From a phage, in assembly GCA_018167155.1 (NCBI GenBank), contig GCA_018167155.1_4332.1: a DNA stretch of 43,803 nucleotides; one strand, given 5' to 3'. Each line of letters opens with the position of its first letter. Position 1 is the stretch's first letter. Position numbers and translations under genes: made by a program. Below, piece after piece: positions 7,030 to 40,138 of the stretch. The notes under the pieces are model-generated. The model was given only the letters and a program-made list of their open reading frames with translations. It was not told where the DNA came from and made no database searches.

Positions 7030-7056
7030 TAAAAAGAAAGGGGCGTTAAGCCCCTT
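7030..7056. terminator. Hairpin terminator between convergent genes
   Basis: AGGGGC-GTTAA-GCCCCT stem-loop; on the minus strand it is followed by TTTCTTTTT (terminates the XRE gene). Confidence 0.5.
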
Positions 7057-7261
7057 CACCGAACGCCAGCCACTTGGCGTCTACTTCCAGCACTTCCGCC
7101 AGTTTAAACAGCGTTGCCGGGCGGACGTCCTGAGTTACACCGAGCGCAAGTTGGTTAATTGCGCCCTGGGAAACACCAGCCAGGACAGCCAAACGGCGCT
7201 GGGAGATGCCGAGTTCTTTACGGCGTTGTTCTACACGGATGCCTAGTTCAGATGGTTGCAT
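7046..7261 (-). CDS. XRE-family (Cro/CI-type) helix-turn-helix transcriptional regulator
   Basis: 71 aa; LGISQRRLAVLAGVSQGAINQLALG is a classic HTH_3 motif. The only leftward gene inside the rightward operon; SD AAGGAG upstream of the ATG. Confidence 0.75.
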   Translation of the reverse strand: MQPSELGIRVEQRRKELGISQRRLAVLAGVSQGAINQLALGVTQDVRPATLFKLAEVLEVDAKWLAFGEGA

Positions 7262-7281
7262 GTCAATTACTCCTTAGTTAG

Positions 7282-7354
7282 TTGATATGTGAATAGTACC
7301 ATATTAATTATTTTATAAAAGCACATTGACATGTGAATAGTTCGCTATTATAGT
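7282..7354. promoter_or_regulatory. Divergent control region with two copies of the AATAG-N4-CTATT operator-like palindrome
   Basis: Copy 1 AATAGTACCATATT at 7292-7305; copy 2 AATAGTTCGCTATT at 7336-7349 inside TTGACA(7326-7331)-N17-TATAGT(7349-7354), which drives the + gene at 7386. A minus-strand TACTAT over copy 1 may serve the XRE gene. Confidence 0.55.
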
Positions 7355-27231: not shown

Positions 27232-27338
27232 TCTTTAATCCTTTGGTTAAGAGGTTACAGGTTAAGGAAAATGCGCCAGACGGGAACCACCCGCTTTTCG
27301 TGTGCGACACTAGGCGCAAAATTATTCTATCACATTAC

Positions 27339-27367
27339 TTGCACACCCCAATATAATAGGGTACTAT
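27339..27367 (+). promoter_or_regulatory. Sigma70-like promoter TTGCAC-N17-TACTAT with AATAG-N4-CTATT palindrome
   Basis: TTGCAC 27339-27344, TACTAT 27362-27367, palindrome AATAGGGTACTATT at about 27355-27368. Confidence 0.6.
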
Positions 27368-27396
27368 TCACTTACACCAACAATGAGGGGTTTAAA

Positions 27397-27588
27397 ATGT
27401 CAAGTTTACCAGTTTCCTTAATCCTGTTTGCACTTCTCGCCTATTTCGCACCTTTCCTGGTTGCATATTTCCGTAACCATAAAGCGAAGTTGGCGATATT
27501 CATGGCCAACCTGTTTCTCTGTTGGGTTCTGCTGCCGTGGGTATTTATTTTAATCTGGGCGTGCAACTCGAATGTTAACGAGAAGTGA
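27397..27588 (+). CDS. Superinfection immunity (Imm-like) small membrane protein
   Basis: 63 aa; YFAPFLVAYFRNHKAKLAIFMANLFLCWVLLPWVFILIWA matches the Imm_superinfect pattern as I recall it. Track ORF 26962..27588 is a longer frame; the ATG at 27397 follows SD GAGGGG. Confidence 0.55.
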   Translation: MSSLPVSLILFALLAYFAPFLVAYFRNHKAKLAIFMANLFLCWVLLPWVFILIWACNSNVNEK

Positions 27589-27626
27589 GCTAGTATAGGA
27601 CAAATCCTAAACACGAGGAAGTAAGC

Positions 27627-28757
27627 ATGGCCCGTAAGAAAATAACCGACGAACAGTTACAGGAAGAATTGAACGCCGGAATGAAGAATATCGATATAGC
27701 CCGTAAATACGGCATCTCAGACCGCGTTATTCGTATCCGTAAAGCGAAGCTGGCAAAGAAAGGCGTAGGCCACGGCCGCGACGTCAGCCACCTTGTACCG
27801 GACGGCTACAAGATTAAAGGCACGTCGTCACTGGTGGACGAGTTCGGCAACACTAAGCTGCAATGGGTTAAAACCGACACTGACGCCGAACGTCAGGTCG
27901 AGTTGATGAAAGCCGTAATCGAAGGCATGAAGTCAGAGATTACGCCGGTTGCGCCTGTTAAAGCTGCACGCGTCAAACGCGACGATAAACTACTCAATCT
28001 TTACACTGTATCTGATTTCCATCTCGGTATGCTGGCCTGGGCCGACGAGAGCGGCGACGACTGGGATATGAAAATCGCGGAAGACCTGTTCTCTCGTTGG
28101 TTCGACGCGGCGTTTCAGAAAGCGCCAGATGCAGGAACAGGGGTTATTAACCTGCTGGGCGACTTCGCGCACTTCGATAGTCTGGATGCCGTTACCCCCG
28201 AGTCGCGTCATGTGTTGGACGCAGACACTCGCTACCAGAAACTGGTGCGCTACATGATTCGTATGGTGCGCCGTGTTGTTGATATGGCGCTGGTTAAGCA
28301 TAAAAATGTCCGCTTGCTCATCGTGCAAGGGAACCACGACGAGAGCGGAATGATTTGGTTGGCTGAGATGTTTAGCACTCTGTACGACAACGAGCCGCGT
28401 GTGTTCGTCGATACGTCGCCGGATGTGTACAAGATGGTGCAACACGGCAAAACGACATTGTTCTTTACCCACGGACATAAAGCGCGCTTCGACGCTATCG
28501 AACCGGTTATGATTGCCAAGTTCCGCAAAGCGTTTGGTGAGAGCGTTTACAGCTACGCCCACGTAGGACACCTACACCATCAGAAGATTGTAGAAAGCCG
28601 TAATATGATTGTTGAGCAACACCGCACCTTAGCGGCTAAAGACGCCTACGCCTCCCGCGGCGGATGGATGTCAAGCCGCAGTGCAAACGTAATTACTTAT
28701 AGCGCCGAATATGGCGAGGTTGCACGTTTAACTATTTCACCGGAGATGCTGGGATGA
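27627..28757 (+). CDS. Calcineurin-like metallophosphoesterase with N-terminal HTH-like domain
   Basis: 376 aa; ordered motifs SDFHLG (DxH), GDFAHFD (GD), QGNHDE (GNH[DE]), THGH, GHLHH (GHxH); N-terminal KNIDIARKYGISDRVIRIRK looks like an HTH. Confidence 0.65.
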   Translation: MARKKITDEQLQEELNAGMKNIDIARKYGISDRVIRIRKAKLAKKGVGHGRDVSHLVPDGYKIKGTSSLVDEFGNTKLQWVKTDTDAERQVELMKAVIEGMKSEITPVAPVKAARVKRDDKLLNLYTVSDFHLGMLAWADESGDDWDMKIAEDLFSRWFDAAFQKAPDAGTGVINLLGDFAHFDSLDAVTPESRHVLDADTRYQKLVRYMIRMVRRVVDMALVKHKNVRLLIVQGNHDESGMIWLAEMFSTLYDNEPRVFVDTSPDVYKMVQHGKTTLFFTHGHKARFDAIEPVMIAKFRKAFGESVYSYAHVGHLHHQKIVESRNMIVEQHRTLAAKDAYASRGGWMSSRSANVITYSAEYGEVARLTISPEMLG

Positions 28758-28984
28758 CTTCAAAATACAACCGAACAATGACAAACACTCACGGCAGCAC
28801 TATGACCGTAGACGTTTACGATGTTCTCCGTGCATTCGACATCCGTGACCCCGCACTACAGCACGCATTGAAGAAACTATTGTGTATGGGTCTTCGCGGG
28901 CACAAGGACACCGGAACCGACTTAGCGGAAGCAATTGAAAGTCTGGAGAAGTTACGAGAGTACCGTAGTAATATAGATGAGTAA
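28754..28984 (+). CDS. Hypothetical protein
   Basis: 76 aa, ATGA-coupled to the phosphoesterase gene. Confidence 0.45.
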   Translation: MTSKYNRTMTNTHGSTMTVDVYDVLRAFDIRDPALQHALKKLLCMGLRGHKDTGTDLAEAIESLEKLREYRSNIDE

Positions 28985-28991
28985 GAATGTA

Positions 28992-29150
28992 ATGAAAACA
29001 ATATACGTAATCCGCGTATATGACGAAGAATGGGATGAGTGGGTTGGTATTTATGCTGTTGGTAGTAAGGAAGAGGCCTCGAAAGAAATGACAGAACGTA
29101 GTAACCGAGGTCAGTTAACTAACTTCTATGAAATGCCATTCAAAAGTGAG
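28992..29150 (+). CDS. Hypothetical small protein (hand-called, 52 aa)
   Basis: Reads MKTIYVIRVYDEEWDEWVGIYAVGSKEEASKEMTERSNRGQLTNFYEMPFKSE; ends 5 nt before the terminator. Confidence 0.3.
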
Positions 29151-29154
29151 TGAG

Positions 29155-29183
29155 AAAAGGCCCCGTTAGGGGCCTTAGTTTTA
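29155..29183. terminator. Bidirectional terminator (strong on minus strand after the tail tube gene)
   Basis: AAAAGGCCCC-GTTA-GGGGCCTT-AGTTTTA, a near-identical copy of the element at 17224. Confidence 0.7.
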
Positions 29184-35684: not shown

Positions 35685-35916
35685 GGGTAATCACCTCTGA
35701 TTTCGTCTTGCCTTCGTTGTCAGCGGCTGCGGCCTTCGATTCATCCTGCTGCTGCCGTTGTGTTTTCTTCGCTAACTCAGCCTGTGCTTTCTGCTGTTGC
35801 TGCGAAACGAGATTCTCCCGGCCTTCGCCCCAGCCGATGCGGTATTGATAGTAGCCGTGTGCGTATAACAGGATGATGAAACATGCTCCCGCTACGACAG
35901 TTGCTTTAAGATTCAT
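35530..35916 (-). CDS. i-spanin (Rz-like)
   Basis: 128 aa; N-terminal transmembrane segment TVVAGACFIILLYAHGYY, then Gln/Ala/Lys/Glu-rich coiled coil; perfect SD AAGGAG 5 nt upstream. Confidence 0.65.
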   Translation of the reverse strand: MNLKATVVAGACFIILLYAHGYYQYRIGWGEGRENLVSQQQQKAQAELAKKTQRQQQDESKAAAADNEGKTKSEVITREVVKYIKTPGRSVCTFDPERVQLKSRAVANANSIPGYDDDAAAVQTGAAK

Positions 35917-36140
35917 GTTTCTCCTTTCTAGATAAGTAAAGCCCCGCCTTAAAGCGGGGCGCTAGTCCTTATCATTTAAACATAGAAACGGCGTAATCTC
36001 AGTAAACCAGTTACTTTTTACACAAGCAATAGAGTATGGCCCTTCCGAACGCGTCAGCGTAACTACACTCAGGACTTACGTCCCGCTCCGTTACCTGCCC
36101 GCGCCGCGGTCGCTTGTTCATACTTCACAAGCTCAGGTGG

Positions 36141-36184
36141 AGCTTAGCACATTTTCAGTTAAAAGTCAACTATTCGAATAGTTT
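36141..36184 (-). promoter_or_regulatory. Candidate leftward promoter (TTGACT-N17-TAAGCT) abutting a 16-bp perfect palindrome AACTATTCGAATAGTT
   Basis: Minus-strand -35 from plus agtcaa 36164-36169 and -10 from plus agctta 36141-36146; palindrome at 36168-36183. Confidence 0.35.
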
Positions 36185-36235
36185 ATTCCAACATTTACAA
36201 TTGAGCGGAATAACTGGAATAGGTAAATAAATAGT

Positions 36236-36264
36236 TTGCAGACACCAGTATAATAGGGTACTAT
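36236..36264 (+). promoter_or_regulatory. Sigma70-like promoter TTGCAG-N17-TACTAT with AATAG-N4-CTATT palindrome
   Basis: TTGCAG 36236-36241, TACTAT 36259-36264, palindrome AATAGGGTACTATT. Confidence 0.6.
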
Positions 36265-36298
36265 TCAGTTATCGAAGCGAGAGATAAGGGGCTTAAAG

Positions 36299-36535
36299 AT
36301 GAAAGAATTAATTATCGCGGTATTGACGACACTGGCAGTTTCGCTGGCAGTTTCGCTGGCAGTTTCACTGGTAATTGCTGCTGGTGTACGTAGCCTAGAT
36401 AAACACGAGTGTGAGAACTACGGAGATGTCACAGGCAGAGAGGTAATGTATAGTTACACAACTTGTTATGTGAAAACTGATAGAGGTTTTATCCCTCGTG
36501 GAGAACTTAATTTTAGAGCAGCGACACATGAATAA
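36299..36535 (+). CDS. Small membrane-anchored protein with tandem AVSL repeats
   Basis: 78 aa; N-terminal hydrophobic LIIAVLTTLAVSLAVSLAVSLVIAAGV encoded by three tandem 12-bp repeats, then a 50-aa Cys-containing domain; own promoter and terminator. Confidence 0.6.
   Translation: MKELIIAVLTTLAVSLAVSLAVSLVIAAGVRSLDKHECENYGDVTGREVMYSYTTCYVKTDRGFIPRGELNFRAATHE
36334..36369 (+). repeat. Three tandem 12-bp repeats (GGCAGTTTCGCT-like) inside the CDS
   Basis: Directly visible: ctggcagtttcgctggcagtttcgctggcagtttcactgg. Confidence 0.7.
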
Positions 36536-36538
36536 AAC

Positions 36539-36564
36539 TAAGGCCCCATAACGGGGCCTTTTAT
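36539..36564. terminator. Terminator hairpin between convergent genes
   Basis: AGGCCCC-ATAAC-GGGGCCT followed by TTTTAT; identical stem to the element at 38641. Confidence 0.65.
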
Positions 36565-37025
36565 CATTCTGGCTTAGTAACCTTCGCCGCCTTGCTTACC
36601 GCCTCAACTCCATCGGCATCGGTAACTTTAACGAAGTATTCGCCAACGGCATTAACCGTCAGGGACAGGGCCTCTTCCGGGGCGTTTACCACTTCCTTAC
36701 CGTCTTTGTACCAGGTCAGCGCGTATGGCGCTTTTCCAGCCTTAACCTCGACAGTGATAGTCGCGCTGCCGTCTACCAGTTCAGCGTCCTGGGGTTGTAC
36801 GGAGAAATACACATCACCTGCGTCCGCCAGATACGGAATCTCGTAAAACATGCCCGCCGCCGGTAGCGCAATACCGGTCTTGTCTGCAAACGGCATATCG
36901 TCTACCGGTGTACCGAGTACACTTTCGTCTTCAATAAACACCACGTTCTCGCCGGAGCCAGACACGCGGGCATACTGGACTACACGACGCGACGGCACAT
37001 CTGTTACTTTGAAAAAGCCCATCAT
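36564..37025 (-). CDS. Hypothetical structural protein with C-terminal Ig-like domain
   Basis: 153 aa; TITVEVKAGKAPYALTWYKDGKEV is Ig-like. Confidence 0.5.
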   Translation of the reverse strand: MMGFFKVTDVPSRRVVQYARVSGSGENVVFIEDESVLGTPVDDMPFADKTGIALPAAGMFYEIPYLADAGDVYFSVQPQDAELVDGSATITVEVKAGKAPYALTWYKDGKEVVNAPEEALSLTVNAVGEYFVKVTDADGVEAVSKAAKVTKPE

Positions 37026-38070
37026 TATTCCCCTTTCAGATAATCAGCAACACGTTTATCGAGTTCCGCCATCTGCTTAAGTGTGAGCGGATTCCCGAAA
37101 CAATCTACAGATATTACGCGAAACTCTTCTGGCGATATACCGCTGTTGCGGAAAATCTTACCTCGCACCGGGCCGAGGGCTTCATCCACGAACCACGCCG
37201 GTTGTTGTTTCAGGAACTCGTAGTAAGTGGTGTCTGCGCTTACCTGAGTACCTCCGTCCGCACCCTTAGCCGCACGTTTTGCACCTTTATCGAGGAAGTC
37301 GAACTCTGAACTGATTACAGGCGCAGTGGTCGTTCTGCAGTTAGGATGGAAAGGTGGCCTCGGCCCTTTGCCGATTTCGTATTCCTGCCCGTCCAGGCTA
37401 CGGCATATTGTTGATGTACGACTGTCGAGTGTGGCGACGATTTCGTATTTCTCGATGATGTCGTCGTTCTGGCGGTACGTCTCGTTGCGTGCTTCGTTGG
37501 ACACGTGAGACAGCGCAGTACGTATTACCGTAGCGGCGTTACGTTCAGAGATGTCAGCCAGTCCACCAGCGCCTACGACATTCTTAACAATCTGCCGTGT
37601 TGTTTGGCCTTGTACAAAGCCCATCTTAACGCCGGTTACCAGGCGAGCGACTTCGGTTTCACCCCAGCCAGACATCAACTTAGTGAAATCAACCGGCTTG
37701 TCGCTTAGCGATAGCGGTTGAAACTCGGCGGCGGCCCACACCTGTTCGGCGGTAGGCGTAACAAATTCCGCATTAACGTTGGTGGTAAGTGTCTTTACGT
37801 TCCACTCTGCTTCATATGCCGCCAGTTCCTTAAGGTCTTCTGTCAGCTTTGTCTGCCAGTCACCAGTAAGCCCTGTCAGTGCTTCTTCAAGGTCACGTAA
37901 CAGTTTATTCAGTCGCGCTGTGCTGCGACCGTCGTCGCCGAACAACAGCACCTGTCGTTTGATTTCGTCCCGCATTTCCCGGATGAACGGTGTGAGGTCT
38001 TTCACTTCGCCGGATGCGGTGCGTTGCAGCCATATCTGGTGGCTAATTAGGGATGTAAGTAAGCTCATAT
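37025..38070 (-). CDS. Head morphogenesis protein (Mu gpF / SPP1 gp7 family)
   Basis: ORF track 37025..38125; ATG at 38070 after AGGAGGG. C-terminal ICRSLDGQEYEIGKGPRPPFHPNCRTT matches the Mu F HPNCRC signature. Confidence 0.7.
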
Positions 38071-38112
38071 GCCCTCCTGTAGTATCGACAGTGTAACGTA
38101 TAAAAATAATAT

Positions 38113-38141
38113 TTGCAGACACCAATATAATAGGGTACTAT
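38113..38141 (+). promoter_or_regulatory. Sigma70-like promoter TTGCAG-N17-TACTAT with AATAG-N4-CTATT palindrome
   Basis: TTGCAG 38113-38118, TACTAT 38136-38141; the promoter-to-SD sequence is nearly identical to the 36236 promoter. Confidence 0.6.
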
Positions 38142-38167
38142 TCAGTTAACTTAAACAGGAGATGAAA

Positions 38168-38329
38168 ATGGTTACTTTGATTACTTGGGAACACGAAAAT
38201 AGTCAACCTGAAACGCGTGAATTCGAAACTGTAGCGGCTTGCTACCGCCTGGCGTCAGGCGGATTCTATAAATCACAGATTGTAAATGAGTTTGGAGTGG
38301 TGGATTATGAGTTTACGAAACAATCTTAA
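38168..38329 (+). CDS. Hypothetical small protein (hand-called, about 53 aa)
   Basis: ATG 6 nt after AGGAG; reads MVTLITWEHENSQPETREFETVAACYRLASGGFYKSQIVNEFGVVDYEFTKQS. Confidence 0.35.
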   Translation: MVTLITWEHENSQPETREFETVAACYRLASGGFYKSQIVNEFGVVDYEFTKQS

Positions 38330-38651
38330 GAACCACTTGAAGGTCTACGGGCCTTATGGCTTGCATTCATGGAACGGTGGGTATGACGTAAACGATGACC
38401 TGCCGATACGTAAAATAGCACGCGCGGCGCGACGCAATGTAAAGCCGGGTGACGTGCTAGTCATACGAGATAATAATGTCATTGTTGAGGTTGAGAAAGT
38501 TCATGGCATGTTTCTCACAGTAATACCTGTTGATGTTGCTTTGCGTGACGCAAGGCCCTACCGAGAAGCTGGGGGTGGTAAAACTGGTAAATACACATAC
38601 GGCAGGATTGAGATACATAAAACACATCTTGATAAAGTTAAGGCCCCATAA
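38307..38651 (+). CDS. Hypothetical protein
   Basis: ORF track 38286..38651; internal ATG at 38307 after GGAGTGGTGG; 114 aa basic protein. Confidence 0.5.
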   Translation: MSLRNNLKNHLKVYGPYGLHSWNGGYDVNDDLPIRKIARAARRNVKPGDVLVIRDNNVIVEVEKVHGMFLTVIPVDVALRDARPYREAGGGKTGKYTYGRIEIHKTHLDKVKAP

Positions 38652-38664
38652 CGGGGCCTTTTTC
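38641..38664. terminator. Rho-independent terminator between the plus cassette and the portal gene
   Basis: AGGCCCC-ATAAC-GGGGCCT followed by TTTTTCTTT. Confidence 0.7.
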
Positions 38665-38665
38665 T

Positions 38666-40138
38666 TTACTGCGGTTGTTGTTGAGCCGACTGCGGAATCT
38701 CTCCTGATACCTGAGTAACCGCACCCAACGGCAGCGGCGCGTCCTCGATAGCGTTCTGAATATCCTCGTCTGTCCAGTCGATTACACCCGCTTTACGCAA
38801 CGCAGCATAATAAGCAGTAGCGGGTAGCAGGCCGGCGTTAATATCCGCCATCCACTGCGCTCGTTCGGGCGCGGTCATCGGTTGCAGGAAGAACTCCATG
38901 TTAAGTTTAAACTCAATCTCTGTGCCTTCACGCAACCCTAACATCGCGGCTACCCAGCGCAACGCATCGGTGTACGCCATGCTTACGTTACGCGCAATTG
39001 TCGCCATAACAGACGTGTCGGCGCCGCGTTGCAGGCGGGCCGATTCGGCGGTGATTTGCTGCGTCGGGGTGATAAGCTGTGCGCCAATCTGAATGGCCTG
39101 ATTCTCCTTATCCAGCATGTTCTGCTTGGCGAGGTTGTTCTCTCCAGCCTGAACCAGAAACGCGTTGCCGCCGTAACCGATGTTATGGCCTGAACGCGAC
39201 CCCATACGCACGCCGTGGGGGTTGGCTTCTTTCCACTGTTCCATGCTCATGTTCTCGCCAGGGGCGATGAACAGAGTGGGCTGGCCTACAACGAAGCTGG
39301 ATTCCTCATTGTCTGCGCTGTTGCGGAAATGTCCGATATTAAGCTCAGCCAACGGCAGCAAAGGTGCGTCGTCAATGGTTGCATCGTTGTTGCTCGCCCC
39401 AATGAACGTGAACGGGATTTTACCGCGCAACTGTTCGCCGAGTTCCGGGAATATCTCGATTACTTCGTCCTTAGCGCCACCTTCGGCATCGAAGCGGTAA
39501 ATGCGCTGGCGATAACGACCGTCAATCAGGTCAAGGACGCGGTATTGTTCGCCGAACTTTGTTTCGAACTCTGCACCAGGTTCTGAGTATTCCCATACCT
39601 CACGCAGCACGACCATTGTCACACGGTTAACTGAACCGACGCGGGTCAGTCGCCAGTTGATGATGTTCTCTGCGGTGTAGAATGCGATGACCGGGTTTAA
39701 TAATCCTGCGTTCTGTTCGGCTGCTGTTGCCGCTGCTGTCTCCGGCGCATCCACCAGCAAGCCCCCACGCCCCATTGAGTCAATCTCCATTAGCGTGTCC
39801 TGCGCGTGCTGCCACAGCCCGACACCGGAGCCATCAGCATTGCGCAACAGGTACTCCAGTTCAGGCGGGATAATCTGCTCAGGGTCTTTGTGCATCACTG
39901 ACCCCACCATCCCAGCCAGGGTACGTTTAGTGAAGTTGTAGCAAATAGCGCCGTTCTCGTATTCTTCCTGGCGCTGTGCAGCGTAGGTCTGGTCGGGTTC
40001 GTTCTTCCCGACATTTCGAAGATAGCGAATAAGGTCGCCTTCCAGCGCGTGTCGCACCTTCTGCCATTTATTGAAGTGATGCAGCCATTCCCGGTGTTTT
40101 GTCTTAACACCCTGATTCTGACCGTTCATAGTTAACAT
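38666..40138 (-). CDS. Portal protein
   Basis: 490 aa directly downstream of TerL; SD AAGAGGA; call rests on size and conserved TerS-TerL-portal-MuF synteny. Confidence 0.65.
   Translation of the reverse strand: MLTMNGQNQGVKTKHREWLHHFNKWQKVRHALEGDLIRYLRNVGKNEPDQTYAAQRQEEYENGAICYNFTKRTLAGMVGSVMHKDPEQIIPPELEYLLRNADGSGVGLWQHAQDTLMEIDSMGRGGLLVDAPETAAATAAEQNAGLLNPVIAFYTAENIINWRLTRVGSVNRVTMVVLREVWEYSEPGAEFETKFGEQYRVLDLIDGRYRQRIYRFDAEGGAKDEVIEIFPELGEQLRGKIPFTFIGASNNDATIDDAPLLPLAELNIGHFRNSADNEESSFVVGQPTLFIAPGENMSMEQWKEANPHGVRMGSRSGHNIGYGGNAFLVQAGENNLAKQNMLDKENQAIQIGAQLITPTQQITAESARLQRGADTSVMATIARNVSMAYTDALRWVAAMLGLREGTEIEFKLNMEFFLQPMTAPERAQWMADINAGLLPATAYYAALRKAGVIDWTDEDIQNAIEDAPLPLGAVTQVSGEIPQSAQQQPQ

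Follow-up and report, generated by a model that had tools for sequence, protein, structure and literature searches.

A plus-strand cassette between the MuF-like and portal genes

The DNA analysed here is contig GCA_018167155.1_4332.1 of GenBank assembly GCA_018167155.1, a stretch of 43,803 nt that we call the window and that is the genome of a Kagunavirus (Guernseyvirinae) coliphage. Between its MuF-like head morphogenesis gene and its portal gene, both on the minus strand, lies a small cassette that runs the other way, on the plus strand (38101–38669). It consists of a repeated promoter-like block, two overlapping open reading frames (ORFs) and an intrinsic terminator. ORF1 (38168–38329, plus strand) encodes 53 amino acids (aa) with an isoelectric point (pI) of 4.6 and belongs to the family DUF7170. 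ORF2 (38307–38651, plus strand) encodes 114 aa with a pI of 9.9. Longer calls are listed for both, 55 aa from 38162 for ORF1 and 121 aa from 38286 for ORF2; comparison with homologues places the starts at MVTLITW... and MSLRNN..., respectively. With these starts, the 3' end of ORF1 and the beginning of ORF2 overlap by 23 nt. A ribosome-binding site (RBS) for ORF1, AGGAG at 38157–38161 on the plus strand, stands 6 nt 5' of its ATG, and one for ORF2, GGAG at 38294–38297, stands 9 nt 5' of its start, both as read from the sequence.

An earlier note on this DNA, made without database searches, had described two overlapping plus-strand ORFs of about 53 and 114 aa, and these are the two frames just given. 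Conservation and a coding signal in relatives, on which that note had staked its reading, were looked for, and both homologues and purifying selection were found. Compared with Escherichia phage vB_EcoS_UTEC10, the ratio of nonsynonymous to synonymous substitution rates (dN/dS) is 0.13 for ORF1, a value that rests on only three substitutions, and 0.17 for ORF2. In the comparison with the Salmonella homologue, dS is saturated and dN is 0.23. Judged by these substitution patterns, both ORFs are under purifying selection and are real genes. A reading of the cassette as non-coding RNA was dropped because an Rfam scan of 35900–38750 found no RNA family.

The placement of the unit in the earlier note, between the MuF-like and portal genes, is correct, since the flanking genes could be identified as MuF-like, portal and large terminase. 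The left neighbour (37025–38068, minus strand) matches PF04233 with E = 9.2e-13 and is annotated as a head morphogenesis protein in relatives. The right neighbour (38666–40138, minus strand) matches DUF4055 with E = 3.3e-24 and is annotated as a portal protein in relatives. The cassette fits closely between them. The distance from the start codon of the MuF-like gene to the core of the cassette promoter, which is divergently oriented, is 45 nt, and that from the portal stop codon to the terminator hairpin is 6 nt. The word antisense, which the earlier note had used for the unit, describes its orientation only, because the cassette overlaps no coding sequence. Its GC content is 43.1%, against 50.8% for the genome and 52–55% for the flanks, which places it among the lowest 3.5% of windows of the genome.

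The 3.2-kb region around the cassette has matches in 226 phage records. The best of these is the Kagunavirus UTEC10, with 89% identity over 100% of the query. The remaining matches cover at most 85% of the region and are split into two or three pieces.

The promoter block and its palindrome

The block at the left end of the cassette (38101–38148) recurs twice on the plus strand of the window, at 36224–36271 with 88% identity over 48 nt and at 27327–27374 with 75% identity. Each of these copies opens another cassette of the same orientation, referred to here as cassette 2 (36224–36562) and cassette 1 (27327–29176), the one beside the portal gene being cassette 3. In all, three promoter–terminator pairs in the window enclose accessory ORFs. 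The conserved core of the block is 32 nt long and has the form TTGCASAC-N6-ATAATAGGNTACTATTCA. There are five copies in the window against 0.00 expected, with none in 100 shuffles. This core defines the class-1 promoter, and its copies are at 2644 and 3885 on the minus strand and at 27339, 36236 and 38113 on the plus strand. The three plus-strand cores are distributed one to each reverse-oriented cassette. The two minus-strand cores each precede several consecutive genes on that strand, and those that follow 3885 are all small ORFs.

The core copy of cassette 3, TTGCAGACACCAATATAATAGGGTACTATTCA at 38113–38144 on the plus strand, was located by repeat search, and its hexamers were read from the sequence. 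We propose a sigma-70 reading in which TTGCAG (38113–38118) is the −35 element and TACTAT (38136–38141) the −10 element, with a spacer of 17 nt, because the invariant block then spans exactly from −35 to about +1 in five of five copies. An internal TATAAT (38126–38131) has no usable −35 element. The class-1 element is found in 149 phage records at 228 places, with up to three per genome. All but one of these records are named as Escherichia, Salmonella, Shigella, Raoultella or Kagunavirus phages, and every record for which the taxonomy was checked belongs to the Guernseyvirinae.

Overlapping the proposed −10 element is a palindrome, AATAGGGTACTATT (AATAG-N4-CTATT, 38129–38142), which is a candidate operator. 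The motif AATAG-N4-CTATT occurs at 12 sites in the window against 0.96 expected, and all of them are in promoter-like positions. In the paper describing phage fBC-Eco01, the same motif appears as the PHIRE repeat tgAATAGTa-ccTATTat-T, is called a phage promoter, and is attributed to a phage-encoded RNA polymerase. No RNA polymerase gene was seen among the window proteins examined, although no dedicated screen for one was made.

Between the promoter block and ORF1, the 5' untranslated region (UTR) is predicted to be unstructured (−1.2 kcal/mol, z = +0.46). The earlier note had called the promoter and the 5' UTR near-identical to those of the cassette at 36236. The 88% identity over 48 nt bears this out for the promoter. 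The claim fails for the 5' UTRs, where the alignment extends only about 6 nt further (CAGTTA) and the rest up to the RBS and ATG is unrelated. That note had also spoken of an operator-bearing promoter and a strong terminator. The terminator is indeed strong and the promoter block is indeed repeated, while the status of the upstream block as promoter and operator is a prediction at the level of sequence.

The terminator

The cassette is closed by an intrinsic terminator at 38640–38669 on the plus strand, recognised by folding and by comparison of repeats. It has a GC-rich stem of 8 bp and a loop AUAAC, and is followed by UUUUUCUUU. The plus-strand fold has an energy of −18 kcal/mol with z = −4.6. 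The hairpin folds comparably on the minus strand (−18.9 kcal/mol), where the U-tract is weaker (UUAACUUUAU). Terminators of this family occur in four copies in the window against 0 expected.

The hairpin itself, AAGGCCCCATAACGGGGCCTT at 38640–38660, is identical at 21 of 21 positions, stem and loop, to the one at 36540–36560 in cassette 2, in agreement with the near-identity that the earlier note had seen. The loop, ATAAC, is thus common to cassettes 2 and 3. In nine of ten relatives a loop was found, each of them different and in no case ATAAC. Since the ATAAC loop is shared here and not in these relatives, we consider that the terminator was likely copied between cassettes 2 and 3 within this genome, and recently.

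The last codons of ORF2 (K-A-P-stop) are encoded by the stem and loop of the terminator. This is so both here and in the Salmonella copy, which has its own terminator. Because the terminator encodes the end of ORF2 in both copies, the right junction of the cassette lies inside the 3' end of ORF2.

The same slot in relatives

The slot between the MuF-like and portal genes was compared in 11 Kagunavirus genomes, the window and 10 relatives. It holds seven different cargoes, and one slot is empty. The pair of DUF7170 and the 114-aa ORF is found in the window and in UTEC10. A 173-aa ORF occupies the slot in fBC-Eco01 and SHAK7693, a 94-aa ORF in EF2-1 and K-02, two ORFs of 64 and 79 aa in phiWAO78-1, and an ORF of about 93 aa in 22664BS2. 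ST20 has a 55-aa ORF with no promoter matching the regular expression, and EcoPhCCP1 has a 217-aa ORF behind a different, foreign promoter. In Bas75, the slot is empty and measures 36 nt, containing only a terminator and a relic resembling the palindrome.

What stays constant is the frame around the cargo. The same promoter core is at the same position in seven of the nine occupied relatives. In five relatives inspected in detail, the match extends into the RBS, and in some of them into the first codons (MVT...). At the other end, eight of the nine occupied relatives close with a hairpin of the AAGGCCCC type, and phiWAO78-1 closes with the related hairpin AAAGCCCC. In the sampled genomes, the cargo between promoter and hairpin is unrelated, and identity resumes at the terminator hairpin.

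The converse arrangement also occurs. In Salmonella Jersey-like phages, the pair of DUF7170 and the 114-aa ORF lies between scaffold and spanin, and both its promoter and its terminator differ from those of the window. ORF2 is 69% identical between these phages and the window. The modular exchange of accessory genes suggested by the earlier note is therefore supported from both sides, by other cargo in the same slot and by the same cargo in another slot. DUF7170 and ORF2 are inherited together within the Guernseyvirinae, though they are probably not an obligate pair.

The comparison can help to correct annotation at the slot, where labels now include sliding clamp, RusA-like, efflux permease and amidase. 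One record names the 173-aa cargo DNA polymerase III sliding clamp, another RusA-like resolvase. Its only Pfam match is to DNA_pol3_beta_2 with E = 0.006, and both labels look unsafe because that match, at 17 bits against a cut-off of 27, is far below threshold. SHAK7693 is filed under the Autographiviridae although it is a Kagunavirus relative.

ORF1 is a widespread DUF7170 protein with changing partners

ORF1 matches PF23776 (DUF7170) with E = 2.5e-27 and 95.2 bits, against a cut-off of 27, its residues 1–49 aligning to positions 1–50 of the 52 in the profile. It also matches phrog_4653 with E = 1.7e-29. Matches to this DUF7170 protein appear in 461 phage records. The carriers include Drexlerviridae such as TLS, Klebsiella phages of about 49 kb, the T4-like Krischvirus group, Vequintavirinae and others. 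The Klebsiella phages of about 49 kb that carry DUF7170 are reported as Webervirus in the KlebPhaCol preprint. ORF1 is 80–90% identical to the copies in Drexlerviridae and in these Klebsiella (Webervirus) phages. A literature search on DUF7170 found nothing.

ORF1 differs from other DUF7170 proteins in a C-terminal extension of four residues, TKQS. The extension is present because the usual stop after ...YEF has been lost, and as a consequence the overlap with the next gene has grown from 11 to 23 nt. In eight of nine phages examined, the ATG of the downstream gene is embedded in the ...YEF-stop codons of DUF7170, the typical overlap being 11 nt. The genes on the downstream side of this junction vary. 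DUF7170 is followed by the 114-aa family in the window, by a family of 90–96 aa in Bas07, Bas70 and TLS, by a 69-aa ORF in Roth71, and by the housekeeping gene nrdG in the T4-like phage JSE.

ORF2 belongs to a rare family with a predicted small barrel

ORF2 matched no family in Pfam, PHROGs or NCBIfam. A Pfam scan of all 17 members of its own family returned only noise, and a sequence search of the PDB with profiles of the ORF1 and ORF2 families returned nothing significant. In a scan for defence and anti-defence systems, there was no significant match, and the PADLOC matches of ORF2 were sub-threshold, to PDC-M16A (E = 0.01). Homologues of ORF2 form seven clusters in a set of 5.8 billion proteins and have 15 representatives in one of 1.84 billion, and all but three are about 110 aa long. 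An alignment of 16 full-length sequences of the family has eight invariant residues and an N-terminal motif RNxLKNHxKxFG. Some distant homologues are encoded without DUF7170, either among small genes beside a DNA methyltransferase or in a phage of 95 kb.

The earlier note had proposed a remote homology search and a structure prediction for the 114-aa protein. Both have now been run, and they give a rare family and a barrel model with a pLDDT of 90.3. That AlphaFold2 (AF2) model was built from 16 diverse sequences and predicts a helix together with an SH3/KOW-like barrel. It replaces a run from a six-sequence alignment, which had a pLDDT of 46.7 and was unusable. The model resembles SH3-like small beta-barrels, including the KOW domains of Spt5/NusG, Tudor and PWWP domains, the N-terminal domain of Hpy99I, and YfhH. 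It differs from them in that the N-terminal two-helix segment, which holds RNxLKNHxKxFG, the best-conserved motif of the family, is without counterpart. It also differs in lacking membership at the sequence level, with no match in Pfam and none by sequence in the PDB. Because the fold class is too generic, no function can be transferred to ORF2 from the fold.

A probable accessory transcription unit in a hot-spot slot

Taken together, we put the probability at roughly 0.8 that the cassette is an autonomous accessory transcription unit, of the kind called a moron or a promoter-early stem-loop (PeSL) cassette, in a hot-spot slot of a virulent Kagunavirus. The host sigma-70 RNA polymerase would start at about 38148 and make an mRNA of about 0.5 kb, to about 38665, on which translation of ORF2 would be coupled to that of ORF1. 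A phage regulator may bind the palindrome over the −10 element, the simplest candidate being a 71-aa protein of the HTH_3 (XRE-type) family (7046–7261, minus strand; PF01381, E = 2.3e-12), so considered because it is encoded beside two palindromes (at 7292 and 7336). Binding would place the cassette in one regulon with the other nine or so palindrome-bearing promoters, on the same temporal programme, and could switch it off once late transcription passes through the slot from the other side. Promoter and terminator repeats may serve as homology patches, through which recombination would move cargo between slots and between phages. As a best guess, the cargo would have a non-essential function in interaction with the host, such as host takeover, anti-defence or exclusion. 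Going by its model, the barrel of ORF2 is probably a binding surface for nucleic acid or a host protein.

The moron concept is said to come from the lambdoid phages HK97 and HK022, reportedly in work of Juhala and colleagues and of Hendrix and colleagues, both from 2000. Classical morons are carried by temperate phages. They usually point the same way as the late operon, and their expression from the prophage benefits the lysogen. The promoter of the cassette is a predicted one, its hexamers agreeing only moderately with the consensus. The cassette is like morons in having its own terminator (−18 kcal/mol), in standing between two genes that are adjacent in Bas75 (36 nt), and in its atypical GC content. 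Unlike them, it is in reverse orientation, and its promoter is of the phage's own repeated class. Published descriptions of Kagunavirus relatives call them lytic or virulent, and since the phage belongs to a group so described, the criterion of expression from a prophage may not apply.

In T4-type phages, PeSLs act as mobile regulatory cassettes (Arbiol et al. 2010, PMC2839356; Comeau et al. 2014, PMC4122927). The resemblance lies in short repeated motifs, a sigma-70-like promoter and a stem-loop, that bound small non-essential ORFs, and in insertions, deletions and replacements between close relatives that end at the motifs, implying a shuffling of cargo driven by recombination. A PeSL is a composite motif, terminator and then promoter, and tandem copies lie between early genes of one orientation in the hyperplastic regions of large myoviruses. 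In the cassette, by contrast, promoter and terminator are distinct elements on either side of the cargo, with about 500 nt between them, and what lies 5' of the promoter is the start of the MuF-like gene and no stem-loop. The cassette also differs from PeSLs in being reversed within the structural-gene block of a 44-kb siphovirus, and its promoter carries the phage's own palindromic, operator-like motif.

Several points weigh against the interpretation as an accessory unit. The census covers 11 genomes of the 226 matching records. TTGCAG-17-TACTAT agrees with the consensus at only three of six and four of six positions and is absent from the list of a consensus promoter scan. The link between the operator and the HTH_3 protein as its regulator is a guess, and the fold matches of ORF2 are to generic SH3-like barrels. 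The one published Kagunavirus RNA-seq study that was found (PMC12645636) is too coarse in its time points and gene calls to resolve units of this kind. Finally, the palindromic core could also serve minus-strand transcription of the MuF-like gene, and the promoter scan does list a minus-strand candidate at cassette 2.

The last point leads to an alternative in which the conserved elements mainly serve the late operon, the hairpin as a bidirectional terminator or attenuator after portal and the palindrome as a restart promoter for the MuF-like gene, with the ORFs as minor passengers. Read on the minus strand, the palindromic −10 region is TATTAT, but the corresponding −35 positions, as read from the sequence, are not conserved; the invariant TTGCA and its fixed spacing face the ORFs in five of five copies, and the RBS and ATG follow in that direction. 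The minus-strand fold of the hairpin is as good as the plus-strand one, yet the U-tract at 38640–38669 is weak there. The retention of the terminator and the palindrome-like relic between portal and MuF in the empty slot of Bas75 is what a service to the late operon would leave, and the clear purifying selection on both ORFs of the cassette is not what would be expected of minor passengers. We think this alternative improbable. Somewhat less unlikely, although still doubtful, is that ORF1 and ORF2 are an obligate two-component system, such as toxin and antitoxin, inhibitor and effector, or chaperone and client, so that the pair is the functional and mobile unit. The pair and its overlapping junction are kept in the window, in UTEC10 and in the Salmonella Jersey-like phages, although the slot, promoter and terminator differ in the last of these, and an overlap of 11–23 nt implies translational coupling. 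The two proteins are also opposite in charge (pI 4.6 and 9.9). However, family scans of the two matched no toxin–antitoxin or defence family, and distant homologues of ORF2 exist without DUF7170. The obligate pair is weakened because DUF7170 is likewise coupled to nrdG and to other unrelated genes, the 90–96-aa family and the 69-aa ORF.

The least probable of the alternatives, to which we give very little credence, is that ORF1 is an anti-restriction peptide of the type of T4 Stp, which would make the cassette an anti-defence unit against type I restriction or PrrC-linked systems. The idea arises from the homologue in the Klebsiella phage Roth71, which is 86% identical to ORF1 and labelled anti-RM protein stp1, a kind of label whose source, according to the KlebPhaCol preprint, is AntiDefenseFinder. 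It would suit a small, acidic protein that is very widely conserved among enterobacterial phages, and a pentapeptide, RNNLK, is common to ORF2 and Stp. However, BLASTP gives no alignment of T4 Stp with ORF1 or ORF2, and hhalign gives a match to Stp a probability of 0.2% with the DUF7170 profile and 1.2% with that of ORF2. We therefore do not file ORF1 as Stp-like, and its identity as an anti-RM stp1 protein is rejected at this level of comparison. Genuine Stp in other Kagunaviruses is a distinct 26-aa peptide at a different locus. A tblastn search of the window with T4 Stp found no Stp copy, the best match having E = 0.47 at an unrelated position. A literature search on AntiDefenseFinder together with Stp found nothing.

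Stp copies 92–96% identical to that of T4 are present in the Kagunaviruses RP180 and Ro145clw (NC_048181.1, 43056–43130; MG852086.2, 33554–33628). Both are downstream of the endolysin gene, and the one in RP180 carries no annotation. Phages of about 47–52 kb that infect Salmonella, Citrobacter and Escherichia have weaker copies.

Returning to the cassette as an accessory transcription unit, it overturns no current view of phage genome evolution and is a familiar kind of phage accessory insert. The slot is a clean natural example of how a structural operon takes up accessory genes behind standard regulatory signals. The siphovirus that has it is virulent and is used in phage-therapy work, and the slot marks sites at which such phages could be given engineered inserts. 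DUF7170 and the rare 114-aa family offer small, strongly conserved candidate host-interaction proteins for functional screens. A wider proposal can be made, although we advance it only as a speculation with the odds well against it. In it, the three reverse-oriented cassettes would be standardised expression sockets of the Guernseyvirinae, through which virulent siphoviruses could exchange host-interaction genes with unrelated phage families such as Drexlerviridae and Straboviridae, with DUF7170 as a portable leader gene and its pairing with the SH3-like protein as a new module for anti-defence or host takeover. If so, the sockets, each a fixed operator-bearing promoter with a terminator of one family at a defined gap in the structural operon, would do what PeSLs do in T4-type phages, and the DUF7170 leader would couple the translation of variable partners through the start codon embedded in ...YEF-stop.

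Sister cassettes and other elements of the window

Cassette 2 (36224–36562, plus strand), with a promoter of the same class and an identical terminator hairpin, carries a 78-aa membrane protein as cargo. This protein has weak matches to several PHROGs of unknown function. Its ORF (36299–36535) contains three tandem 12-nt repeats at 36332–36376, which encode AVSL three times in the hydrophobic N-terminal segment. Just upstream of the cassette-2 promoter is a perfect 16-bp palindrome, AACTATTCGAATAGTT at 36168–36183, in which the half-sites AATAG and CTATT are in reverse order relative to the operator-like palindrome.

Cassette 1 (27327–29176, plus strand) is within the tail-gene block and has a promoter of the same class and a related terminator. 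Its cargo is larger and comprises an Imm_superinfect membrane protein (PF14373, E = 4e-11), a 376-aa metallophosphatase-like protein and two small ORFs.

Around the HTH_3 gene (7046–7350), the palindromes beside the gene are set like divergent promoters, a Cro/CI-like layout in a group described as virulent. The palindrome at 7336 falls in a second class of promoter, TTGACA-N17-TATAGT, found on the plus strand at 7336, 10181 and 14748. In this class, the palindrome is in the spacer and not over the −10 element. An RBS and an ATG follow on the plus strand at 7336 and 14748.

Downstream of the class-1 promoter at 2644, the minus-strand ORFs at 2079–2585 and 1502–1882 share repeated motifs rich in Cys and His, namely QSGCRKED.QECxHxW and a C..CG near the C-terminus. 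The shared motifs suggest that the two ORFs encode paralogous small zinc-binding proteins.

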